Of a DNA stretch of 64,000 bases, positions 53,411 to 55,564 are shown in pieces. Made by a program: the position numbers and the translations under genes. The stretch lies in NCBI GenBank assembly GCA_963695855.1, contig CAVOHZ010000010.1, forward strand, positions 576,001 to 640,000. Reading direction: 5' to 3'. Every line of letters begins with the position of its first letter. Within the stretch, counting starts at the first letter, position 1. The notes under the pieces were generated by a model. It was not told where the DNA came from. It made no database searches and saw only the letters and a program-made list of their open reading frames with translations. The stretch comes from an uncultured Nitrososphaerales archaeon. GTDB lineage: Archaea; Thermoproteota; Nitrososphaeria; Nitrososphaerales; Nitrososphaeraceae.

Positions 53411-53545
53411 CACAATAATCGAAGGATAAAAACTTTCTACTGACAGTTCTGTCTTATAAACGAGGAAAATTAAAATGAATTACACTAAATTGGTTCAAAG
53501 GAAATCAATTAAATATTGCTAACAATTATTCGTAAAGTTATCATC

Positions 53546-55153
53546 ATGGCCAAGGATCCAGAGAAGACAAATTTGAAAAGTTTAGCTGTGATAAAGAAGA
53601 TGGGATTTGAACCTAAAAAAATTTGTGCCAATCTATCGGTTCCAGAATTGGTAGAATTTTCAGTTATTCGTAAAGAAGCTAATATGTCCTCAACAGGAGC
53701 CTTGTCCGTATTCACTGGAAAATTTACTGGAAGATCCCCTGATGATCGATATATTGTTGAAGATAATATAACTAAAAAAAATATTAATTGGGGAAAAGTA
53801 AATCATCCAATTTCAGAACAGACTTTTGATCAAATATTTGAACGAATGAAAGAGTTTGTAAGAAACAAGGAATTATTCTTATTTAATGGATACGTAGGAG
53901 CAGATGAGGAAGCAAGGTTTCCTGTAAGTGTAATTACAGATAAAGCTTGGCAATCTCTTTTCGCTAATCAAATTTTGATAAAACCAAAAGAAAATGAATT
54001 AAAAAATTTTTCTCCAAAATTGGTTGTCTTTTCTTTAAATGATTTTAAAGCGATGCCGAAAAAAGAGAAAACGGAGTCAGAAACATTCATTATTATTAAT
54101 TTAAAAAAGAAGATTGTTTTAATAGGATACACTTCCTATGCCGGAGAAATAAAAAAATCAATATTTTCTGTTATGAATTATTTCTTGCCTGCAAAAGGCA
54201 TTTTTCCTATGCATTGCTCTGCAAATGTTGGTAAAAATGGAGACACTACACTATTCTTCGGATTATCAGGAACTGGCAAAACAACGTTATCTGCTGATTC
54301 TGATAGATTTTTGATTGGAGATGACGAACATGGATGGTCCGCAGATGGAATATTCAATTTTGAGGGAGGATGTTATGCAAAATGCATAAACCTGAAAAAG
54401 GAAACAGAACCACAGATCTGGAACGCAATAAAATTTGGATCGGTTATGGAAAATGTCGTTATTTCAAATAATAAAAGGGTACCCGACTTTAATGACAATT
54501 CATTAACGGAAAATACTCGTGCTGTATACCCTTTAGAATTCATACCACGGGCAGTAATACCTAGTGTAGGTAGTCATCCAAATGTGATAATTTTTCTTAC
54601 TGCTGATGCTTTTGGCGTATTGCCACCAATTGCAAAATTGACAAAAGAAGGAGCAATGTATCATTTTATGTCTGGATATACCAGTAAGTTAGCCGGTACT
54701 GAAAGAGGAATTACAAAACCCAAAGAAACCTTTTCCCAATGCTTTGGTGCACCATTCATGCCCCTGCACGCTATGGATTACGCCGAAATGTTAGGACGAA
54801 AAATGACGGAGCACAATTCAAGGGTATATTTGATTAATACTGGATGGCATGGAGGTCCTTATGGAATAGGCAAGAGAATTGACCTTAGACATACCAGAAT
54901 AATGGTGACTAATGCTATAAGTGGAGAAATAGATAAATGCTCATTTAAATTGCATCAAATTTTCAATTTGCAGATTCCAACATCATGTCCTGGTGTACCT
55001 AACGAGCTACTTGATCCCAGTCAAACATGGAAAGATAAAAAAGATTACAATATTGCTGCTAGGAAATTAGCAAGATTATTCACACAAAATTTTGAGAAAT
55101 TCGGGCGAGTATCTAAAGAAATTATTGATGCTGGTCCAAAACCAAATGTATAA
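53546..55153 (+). CDS. pckA: phosphoenolpyruvate carboxykinase (ATP)
   Basis: TGRSP, YAGEIKKS, MHCSAN, GLSGTGKTTLS, IGDDEHGW, NFEGGCYAK. Confidence 0.98.
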   Translation: MAKDPEKTNLKSLAVIKKMGFEPKKICANLSVPELVEFSVIRKEANMSSTGALSVFTGKFTGRSPDDRYIVEDNITKKNINWGKVNHPISEQTFDQIFERMKEFVRNKELFLFNGYVGADEEARFPVSVITDKAWQSLFANQILIKPKENELKNFSPKLVVFSLNDFKAMPKKEKTESETFIIINLKKKIVLIGYTSYAGEIKKSIFSVMNYFLPAKGIFPMHCSANVGKNGDTTLFFGLSGTGKTTLSADSDRFLIGDDEHGWSADGIFNFEGGCYAKCINLKKETEPQIWNAIKFGSVMENVVISNNKRVPDFNDNSLTENTRAVYPLEFIPRAVIPSVGSHPNVIIFLTADAFGVLPPIAKLTKEGAMYHFMSGYTSKLAGTERGITKPKETFSQCFGAPFMPLHAMDYAEMLGRKMTEHNSRVYLINTGWHGGPYGIGKRIDLRHTRIMVTNAISGEIDKCSFKLHQIFNLQIPTSCPGVPNELLDPSQTWKDKKDYNIAARKLARLFTQNFEKFGRVSKEIIDAGPKPNV

Positions 55154-55156
55154 AAG

Positions 55157-55289
55157 TAGCCCGGAGCAGATTCGAACTGCTGTCTCCAGGTTTCTTTTCT
55201 GAGATCCAGAGCCTGAAATCCTTAGCCCTACCATGGAGTTTAGCCGCTAGATTCGGCATCAGTCACGAAACAACTGATTCGACCGGGCT
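55157..55289 (-). tRNA. tRNA-Gln(CUG) with three introns (10/11, 21/22, 37/38)
   Basis: Removing 55279-55252, 55239-55222 and 55205-55192 gives a 73-nt cloverleaf: AGCCCGG TC GTCT AGCGGCTAA GGAT T TCAGG CTCTGGA CCTGG AGAC AGCAG TTCGAAT CTGCT CCGGGCT A; each intron has a BHB-like motif. Confidence 0.92.
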
Positions 55290-55564
55290 CCTCGAGCTAC
55301 ATTTTTACTTGTTTTATACAGATATTTATTTTCTCTGACTAGTCTTTTGTACCACTCTTTCAAAATATCTTATATTGCCATTTTTCTTATAAAATGCGAT
55401 AAATATTAGCAGTTAACTTGAAATATATACTAATCATTTAATATCTAAATTTTGACGAATGTACAATGAGTTTGTTTATTTTTGAAACAAAATTTTAATT
55501 GGAGAGAATTTAATTCAATCAGAACGGCTTTATATACCCGATGACGATTATTAAATTTGGACTT

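Follow-up and report, generated by a model that had tools for sequence, protein, structure and literature searches.

The 64-kb window analyzed here (the whole stretch of 64,000 nucleotides from contig CAVOHZ010000010.1 of an uncultured Nitrososphaerales archaeon) contains a gene for tRNA-Gln(CUG) that is interrupted by three short introns. The gene is 133 nt long and lies on the minus strand, from 55289 to 55157; the sequence was read on both strands. When the minus strand is divided by the lengths given in a preliminary description of this DNA, which was made from the sequence alone, it yields exons of 10, 12, 16, and 35 nt and introns of 28, 18, and 14 nt (Table 1). The joined exons make 73 nt, and ARAGORN calls this script-spliced product tRNA-Gln(ctg) over its whole length, [1,73]. 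In ARAGORN's drawing, the product has a 7-bp acceptor stem with an A1-U72 pair, a 4-bp D stem, and a 4-nt variable loop. The A1-U72 pair is an identity mark for the archaeal amidotransferase. The anticodon CTG is preceded by U33, the T arm is GTTCGAATC and matches GTTCRANNC, and CCA is not encoded. A separate cloverleaf filter also accepts the 73-nt product, and the anticodon CUG was obtained both from ARAGORN and from the blind scan described below.

Table 1. Features of the tRNA-Gln(CUG) gene and its surroundings, with each intron's bulge-helix-bulge (BHB) motif. Arrows mark the exon-intron junctions; positions are those of the window.
Feature	Position	Strand	Description	Basis
A/T box AAATAT	55322..55327 (-38 to -33)	-	Candidate TATA element	Sequence and conservation
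Leader box TAGCTCG	55293..55299 (-10 to -4)	-		Conservation
Exon 1	55280..55289	-	tRNA positions 1-10: 5' acceptor strand, U8, C9, G10	
Intron 1, 28 nt	55252..55279	-	Position 10/11; central helix CGGT/GCCG, 4/4; bulges CG↓A and AA↓T; inner stem 5 bp, no outer helix; HBh' type	
Exon 2	55240..55251	-	Positions 11-21: D-stem 5' strand, D-loop with one extra base	
Intron 2, 18 nt	55222..55239	-	Position 21/22; central helix GGCT/GGCT, 4/4, two G-U; bulges AA↓A and AA↓G; inner stem 2 bp, one outer pair; HBh' type	
Exon 3	55206..55221	-	Positions 22-37: D-stem 3' strand, anticodon stem 5' strand; anticodon CTG at 55207-55209	
Intron 3, 14 nt	55192..55205	-	Position 37/38 (or 38/39, product unchanged); central helix 3/4, C-A mismatch; bulges GG↓A and AA↓A; anticodon stem outside, 2-bp inner stem; relaxed	
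Exon 4	55157..55191	-	Positions 38-73: anticodon stem 3' strand, 4-nt variable loop, T arm GTTCGAATC, 3' acceptor strand, discriminator A	
Run of four T	55152..55155	-	Candidate archaeal terminator, one base after the discriminator	

The same gene emerged when the whole genome (3.55 Mb in 11 contigs) was scanned blind, in ignorance of the cuts in the preliminary description. The scan located a T arm with its acceptor strand and sought the matching 5' strand upstream; it then listed the segments that were bounded by BHB-like motifs, removed up to three of them, and required that the remainder pass both the cloverleaf filter and ARAGORN. In the window gene, it placed introns of 28, 18, and 14 nt after mature nucleotides 10, 22, and 38. 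These are the same three cuts, so the 133-nt length, the four-exon layout, and the intron lengths that had been described were all recovered. Because the four exons are colinear inside 133 nt, we do not file it as a split or permuted tRNA gene. This confirms a real archaeal tRNA-Gln(CUG) gene with three short BHB-type introns. Chance is excluded: the blind scan recovers the same introns, and the layout is conserved, with covariation, in relatives.

Across the genome, the blind scan considered 35 candidate segments and reported 29 tRNA genes: 16 without introns, 8 with one, 4 with two, and just this one with three. This census is incomplete, as ARAGORN in intron mode makes 36 calls and 33 Rfam matches lie above the cut-off. 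A tightened version of a wider, relaxed genome scan added no segments. Among the four genes with two introns is a "tRNA-SeC" (C10:1585831-1585954), which is likely a false positive.

As the preliminary description had anticipated, simple tRNA scans overlook the gene. ARAGORN found no tRNAs in the window and none in the unspliced gene region, even in intron mode, and no Rfam match in the window reached the gathering score. When the Rfam tRNA model (RF00005) was run against the whole genome, it gave 18.9 bits (E = 0.48) at the gene, against a cut-off of 29 bits, so the DNA as encoded does not qualify as a tRNA by this model; a score below the cut-off is expected for a gene with three inserts. 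A weak tRNA-like match at 55124-55185 overlaps exon 4. No second tRNA-Gln(CUG) gene was found in the genome by BLAST, Rfam, ARAGORN, or the blind BHB scan. For annotation, the gene matters as the sole tRNA-Gln(CUG) gene in four scans that is overlooked by two standard tools. Also, for 8 of the 12 intron-bearing genes that were reported by both ARAGORN in intron mode and the blind scan, the anticodons differ. Therefore, genomes of this family may seem to be short of tRNAs that they do possess. A separate case lies 840 bases past the end of the window: a tRNA-Arg(CCU) gene (G000:C10:640840-640930, plus strand) has a 16-nt intron after nucleotide 15. Rfam covers only positions 9-63 of that gene, and ARAGORN misses it.

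The three-intron gene is widely conserved. By BLAST, it is present in all 24 of the other genomes of the genus (86-100% identity) and in 91 of the 101 sampled genomes of the family, including all 70 of those with a completeness of 90% or more; three of the genomes counted (G130, G111, and G073) are flagged as unpublished, and no sequence-level claim rests on these three. We compared 77 further loci. Spliced alignment yielded the gene in 105 loci, of which 102 were parsed. The unparsed loci have the second intron elsewhere (L028) or run into the end of a contig (L083 and L108), and two more loci at contig ends (L025 and L109) gave no alignment. Introns 2 and 3 are in all 102 parsed genes. Intron 1 is in 92 of them, and the 10 genes without it come from one genus of the family (seven genes) or from other families (three genes). 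Judging by these sequences, the three-intron layout is the normal one for this soil archaeal family. Every mature sequence has 73 nt, and there are only 18 variants of it; exon 1 is invariant or almost so among 82 distinct relatives; the contexts of introns 1, 2, and 3 have 82, 58, and 66 variants, and the introns range from 19 to 37, 13 to 31, and 14 to 26 nt. As to the 3' end, CCA is encoded directly after the discriminator in 31 of the 102 parsed genes and is absent from the window gene and 71 others.

The intron structures are conserved as well. The central helix has all four pairs in 88 of 92 genes for intron 1 and in 102 of 102 genes for intron 2. In the 82 distinct aligned sequences of intron 1, 95.9% of the cells are standard pairs, versus 81.6% after shuffling. 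None of 500 shuffles reached the observed value for four of five measures; for the fifth, the number of pairs with both sides changed, one of 500 did. If the register is slid by 1-3 columns, just 24-47% of the cells are paired. Seven of the 10 pairs of intron 1 change on both sides, and the first three pairs of its inner stem are standard in every one of the 82 distinct sequences, with three or four types of pair each. In one relative (L027), the central helix itself has a double change: acceptor G6-C has become C6-G, and the intron partner is now G. We therefore consider the central helix of intron 1 to be under selection. For intron 2, the third central pair is C-G in 44, U-G in 9, and U-A in 5 of the 58 distinct sequences. 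Compensatory changes are thus found for the first two introns, while the evidence for intron 3 is weak: most of its pairs are invariant or change on one side only.

To describe the motifs, we used the BHB geometry as quoted in bioRxiv 10.64898/2026.10.13.758758 (the Marck and Grosjean definition, with types hBHBh', HBh', and hBH). Four exon bases 5' of the first bulge pair with four intron bases 5' of the 3' bulge, the bulges are of 3 nt, and a flanking helix in the exon (h) or in the intron (h') has at least two pairs. Introns 1 and 2 have complete central helices, and intron 3, with three of four pairs, belongs to the "relaxed" class. Each has a flanking helix: h' is 5 bp for intron 1 (7 bp in the predicted fold, with h of 0) and 2 bp for intron 2 (with h of 1), and in intron 3 the anticodon stem serves as h, with h' of 2. 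The helices, bulges, and inner stem (ATCAG/CTGAT) that had been described for intron 1, and the helix with two G-U pairs and the bulges described for intron 2, are all present. In intron 1, GCCG (55254-55257) pairs with exon bases 5-8, and the last two bases of the intron (AA) lie within the 3' bulge. In intron 2, GGCT of the exon pairs with GGCT of the intron, and the junction can slide over a 6-nt repeat (GGCTAA) without changing the product.

The genome also encodes enzymes for splicing. There are two paralogs of EndA: one of 184 amino acids, with both the N- and C-terminal domains (110.7 bits for TIGR00324), and one of 113 amino acids, with the C-terminal domain only. One RtcB and a CCA-adding enzyme domain are encoded as well. 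Thaumarchaeota are described as having a heterotetrameric EndA that accepts relaxed motifs (PMC4090602, PMC3218864).

Together, these findings suggest how the tRNA might be made. The gene would be transcribed alone, from the A/T box about 38 nt upstream, and transcription would end at the T-run. The four exon bases lying two bases before each 5' cut would pair with the four intron bases lying two bases before the 3' cut, and this pairing would put both cut sites in 3-nt bulges. EndA, which is encoded here as a long catalytic paralog and a short second paralog, would cut in the bulges. RtcB would ligate the exons, the leader would be trimmed, and CCA would be added to give the 73-nt body. We are confident, although short of certain, that this is the genome's single tRNA-Gln(CUG) gene, with four colinear exons and BHB introns at 10/11, 21/22, and 37/38 that would be spliced by the EndA/RtcB route.

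Several observations weigh against this reading. First, the central helix of intron 3 has only three of four pairs, the inner stem of intron 2 has only 2 bp, and intron 1 has no outer exon helix in any of the 92 genes that contain it (h = 0 in 92/92), so its 3' bulge is not closed. Second, the 113-amino-acid paralog of EndA matches the beta-subunit models weakly, with scores under their curated cut-offs (30.4 versus 101 bits). Third, when we folded the precursor and six intermediates with a nearest-neighbor model, no central helix had a probability above 0.02, and forcing each motif to form cost 7.5-11.6 kcal/mol. Fourth, we considered RNA data from 23 public runs (soil and rhizosphere metatranscriptomes, as contigs), with X1, X2, X11, and X19 compared over 54900-55500. 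Contigs from relatives span the unspliced gene (X2, 54917-55265; X11, 55104-55364), and none of them skips an intron; they have neither joints nor usable ends. Because contigs cannot reveal a 73-nt tRNA, this last result is neutral on splicing.

Another possibility is that the gene and its product are as described, and that the introns must be removed in an obligate order with refolding between the steps, with intron 1 first or last, for instance. The preliminary description had argued for sequential refolding on the grounds that intron 1 uses bases of the acceptor stem. That premise is correct. The exon half of the intron 1 helix consists of acceptor bases 5-7 and U8, so the helix cannot coexist with the full acceptor stem (it and acceptor pairs 5:68-7:66 are mutually exclusive), and the inner acceptor stem must be open for the cut: the precursor would have to open it or never close it. 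In the predicted fold of the 133-nt precursor (-44.8 kcal/mol), the full acceptor stem is kept (probability 0.98-1.0), along with the T arm and the inner stem of intron 1; the central helix of intron 1 has a probability of 0.000, and for introns 2 and 3 the value does not exceed 0.013. There are precedents, too. According to the tRNAscan-SE 2.0 paper (PMC8450103), in some genes one intron must leave before the second motif can form, and RT-PCR (reverse transcription PCR) on a red alga's three-intron tRNA revealed an order of removal (PMC3728597). However, there is no overlap among the three motifs. Each draws on bases of its own, and a single structure can accommodate them all along with the anticodon stem, the T arm, and acceptor pairs 1-4 (-17.9 kcal/mol, compared to -21.7 if the intron 1 helix is dropped in favor of the full acceptor stem). 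Furthermore, removing one or two introns neither raises the probability of the remaining motifs nor lowers their cost. Because no central helix is populated in the precursor or in any of the six intermediates, thermodynamics gives no order. The conflict with the acceptor stem stands, and sequential refolding is a conjecture; we consider an obligate order unlikely. Either the enzyme would need to capture the motifs, or they would need to form in the course of transcription, ahead of the 3' acceptor strand.

The same gene and product could also go with other cut sites: 38/39 for intron 3, or another point within the 6-nt repeat for intron 2. For intron 3, which the preliminary description had placed at the canonical 37/38, the blind scan does find an intron there; we would add that, because intron 3 and exon 4 both begin with A, the junction can slide by 1 nt to 38/39 and give the same product. 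The central helix has three of four pairs in either register, and in a related family (f13), the blind scan picks 38/39 in 16 of 18 loci. Yet in the 38/39 register, C39 falls in the bulge and the G31-C39 pair of the anticodon stem is broken. For intron 2, the full central helix forms only in the register that we give, which is also the one that covaries. Cut sites other than those in Table 1 therefore seem quite improbable to us. Finally, it is very hard to believe that the locus is the decayed form of a tRNA gene, or a tRNA-like remnant, from which no working tRNA is made: such a remnant would fit the sub-cut-off score from the Rfam tRNA model (18.9 bits) and the RNA contigs that lack splice joints, but the exons are nearly invariant across the family while the introns diverge, compensatory changes maintain the intron helices, and four genome scans show no other CUG gene.

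Position 10/11, where intron 1 lies, had been described as rare. Within this clade it is the rule, as it is occupied in 92 of the 102 parsed tRNA-Gln(CUG) genes, and it is also occupied in the tRNA-Gln(UUG) gene of this genome and in records titled Bathyarchaeia and Conexivisphaerales. Glutamine tRNA genes of this group thus regularly have an intron at 10/11, in the CUG and the UUG type alike. The tRNA-Gln(UUG) gene (G000:C1:35253-35350, plus strand) has a single intron of 25 nt after nucleotide 10, with a complete central helix (4/4) and an inner stem of 6 bp; in its place, ARAGORN reports a gene of 72 nt that has no intron and begins within the 25-nt one.

To find other carriers, we searched one genome per prokaryote species with a pattern that combined exon 1 with the last part of intron 1 and the beginning of exon 2. 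Among the 80 matches listed of at least 120, 67 parse as the same three-intron gene, and the titles of those that parse are nearly all Nitrososphaeraceae, Nitrososphaera, Candidatus Nitrosocosmicus, Nitrosopolaris, Nitrososphaerales, or Thermoproteota. Four of the listed matches are in G+C-rich bacteria, with no tRNA around them. These carriers suggest that the window belongs to an ammonia-oxidizing soil archaeon of the Nitrososphaeraceae. More distant relatives vary in which positions are filled. Two loci titled Bathyarchaeia (L136 and L152) have the same three intron positions. A Conexivisphaerales locus (L191) and one titled Nitrososphaerota (L207) have 10/11 and 37/38 only. All 18 loci of family f13 have 21/22 and 37/38 and lack 10/11, and in two genomes from another order of the class (L276 and L277), 37/38 holds the only intron.

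Across these lineages, one orthologous tRNA has from 0 to 4 inserts at five positions (10/11, 21/22, 24/25, 25/26, and 37/38), all within one class. Both extremes occur in one family (f7), which holds intron-free tRNA-Gln(CUG) genes as well as genes with four inserts. The intron-free genes (L124 in G141, L126 in G142, and L127 in G140) are 73 nt long, with a body that resembles tRNA-Gln(UUG). The four-insert genes come from two genera of the family (L118, G030:C77:11421-11639, plus strand; L119, G138:C182:7916-8123, minus strand) and have inserts at 10/11, 21/22, 25/26, and 37/38. Their five pattern-fixed exon pieces, which comprise all but 7 of the 73 nt, are identical; the introns have diverged, and the genes are 71% identical overall. 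Without the four inserts, the product is a 73-nt tRNA-Gln according to ARAGORN. The insert at 25/26 has only three of four central pairs; in L118, three pairs form if the 21/22 intron is retained, versus two if it is not. Two tRNA-Gln(UUG) genes also have three inserts: L113 (G034, family f11) has introns at 10/11, 24/25, and 37/38 by the blind scan, and L125 (G030), which was parsed by eye, has apparent inserts near 15/16, 24/25, and 37/38.

In two sister families, the second intron is at 24/25 instead. This is the case in 7 of 8 genomes with a match in family f4 (the eighth has it at 21/22) and in 5 of 5 in family f9. We compared these loci (L028, L278-L284, and L185 in f4; L114 and L288-L291 in f9) with intron 2 of the window gene (55222-55239). 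The 24/25 introns have a central helix of CAAG/CTTG, and they carry two blocks of the 21/22 introns of the window's genus, AGGGCTAG and ACTCCTTG, with their order swapped. Ten distinct 24/25 introns were each aligned to 57 distinct 21/22 introns in all of their rotations, and they matched only when turned by roughly half the intron length. The best scores (6.5-13) were at rotations of 6-10 of the 17-26 bases, compared to -3 to 1 for the best unrotated alignments. The observed score was reached by 0 of 60 shuffles for seven of the introns and by 1-5 of 60 for the other three. As a control, we aligned other introns from the same genes, and the best alignments were unrotated for 10/11 (7 of 7), for one 21/22 intron, and for 37/38 (10 of 10); one more 37/38 intron was best at a rotation of 1, owing to the ambiguity of its junction. 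All nine of the 24/25 introns tested in this way aligned best when rotated. The rotated form sets CTTG opposite exon CAAG, as an intron at 24/25 requires, while the other form sets GGCT as required at 21/22.

These scores should be read with care: the rotation test was devised after the pattern had been seen, the shuffles preserve base composition only, the best matches depend on a TT variant peculiar to the window's genus, and the 24/25 motif by itself dictates four of the shared bases (CTTG). On balance, we lean toward the view that the 24/25 intron is a true circular permutation of the 21/22 intron. As to the cause, we tentatively raise the idea, which may well be wrong, that the 21/22 intron lineage shifted by three bases along the tRNA in the form of an RNA circle, through reverse splicing. 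An excised and ligated intron circle would pair in trans with the mature tRNA, EndA would cut both strands, RtcB would join them crosswise, and the product would be copied back into DNA. Excised archaeal tRNA introns are known to be circularized (PMC3326292). We also considered duplication and deletion at the DNA level as the source of the permuted intron; reasoning by hand, we found no path of one or two steps. Our literature search for circularly permuted tRNA introns found no report. If this relocation as an RNA circle is true, then it would be the first known sequence footprint of how BHB introns relocate.

The two loci with only 10/11 and 37/38 (L191 and L207) share some of these sequences. 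They have no D-arm intron, and the loop of their long 37/38 intron contains GGGCTAG and then ACTCCTTGG. Both blocks also occur in 21/22 and 24/25 introns elsewhere, and 1-2 of 200 shuffles match the shared length.

Upstream of the window gene, two boxes are conserved. An AWATAY box starts at -41 to -37 in 66 of 93 distinct upstream regions from the family, and TAGCTYG starts at -13 to -10 in 64 of the 93. The spacing of the boxes fits an archaeal TATA element, with a start that we infer to be about 27 nt past the A/T box and about 10 nt before the mature end. Conservation of the leader box is unusual, as the leader should be discarded. We also considered TATAAAA at -29 to -23 as the promoter; because it is not conserved in relatives, we prefer the conserved box at -38. 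Downstream, a T-run is found within 12 nt in 37 of 88 distinct regions. In the window, the T-run overlaps the stop codon of a convergent phosphoenolpyruvate (PEP) carboxykinase gene on the opposite strand (53516-55153, plus strand; Pfam E = 1e-218), which ends three bases from the tRNA gene. Rfam matches to C/D-box snoRNAs at 54916-55130 lie inside the PEP carboxykinase gene, with E-values of 1.5-7 and scores far under gathering, and we attribute them to chance.

There are good descriptions of archaeal tRNA genes that carry two or three BHB introns, mostly from Thermoproteales, the group that the preliminary description had named for triple-intron tRNAs (PMC4033280, PMC8450103); Pyrobaculum calidifontis, for example, has 71 introns in 46 tRNA genes (PMC8450103). 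The gene described here resembles the multi-intron genes of Thermoproteales in its relaxed motifs and in the two-paralog EndA. It differs in that it belongs to another class: the titles of the records that carry it point to a mesophilic, A+T-rich lineage of ammonia oxidizers. Also, unlike in Thermoproteales, three introns are found in just 1 of the 29 tRNA genes recovered by our scan. We saw no sign that the same intron had been copied into other types of tRNA.

Thaumarchaeota are a second group with multi-intron tRNAs. They have their own BHB covariance model in tRNAscan-SE 2.0, with 107 noncanonical introns (PMC8450103), and both multi-intron tRNAs and a heterotetrameric EndA are known from them (PMC8450103, PMC4090602). 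The introns reported there and those reported here share the phylum-level group, the kind of intron, and the reason that older scans fail. Because Thaumarchaeota are already known for such tRNAs, we view this gene as an ordinary multi-intron case, and it is probably annotated already in some public genomes. Our literature search for tRNA introns of Nitrososphaera or Nitrosocosmicus returned nothing specific among the results listed. Another parallel in architecture is tRNA-Ile(UAU) of the red alga Cyanidioschyzon merolae (PMC3728597), which also has three BHB-type introns, one of them in the D arm and one at 37/38. That gene differs in being nuclear and eukaryotic, and its third intron is in the T loop. 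Its splicing intermediates were mapped by RT-PCR, so that the order of removal has been demonstrated there.

In Asgard archaea, tRNA genes have up to five inserts (bioRxiv 10.64898/2026.10.13.758758). Like the introns described here, those inserts are bounded by BHB motifs under the same definition, many are in the D arm, and annotation misses them. How BHB introns arrive and move is posed as an open question in section 2.5 of that study, which found no route by which introns arrive. In contrast, relatives of the window gene have the putatively permuted intron, and our comparative set makes the arrival and movement of BHB introns directly testable.

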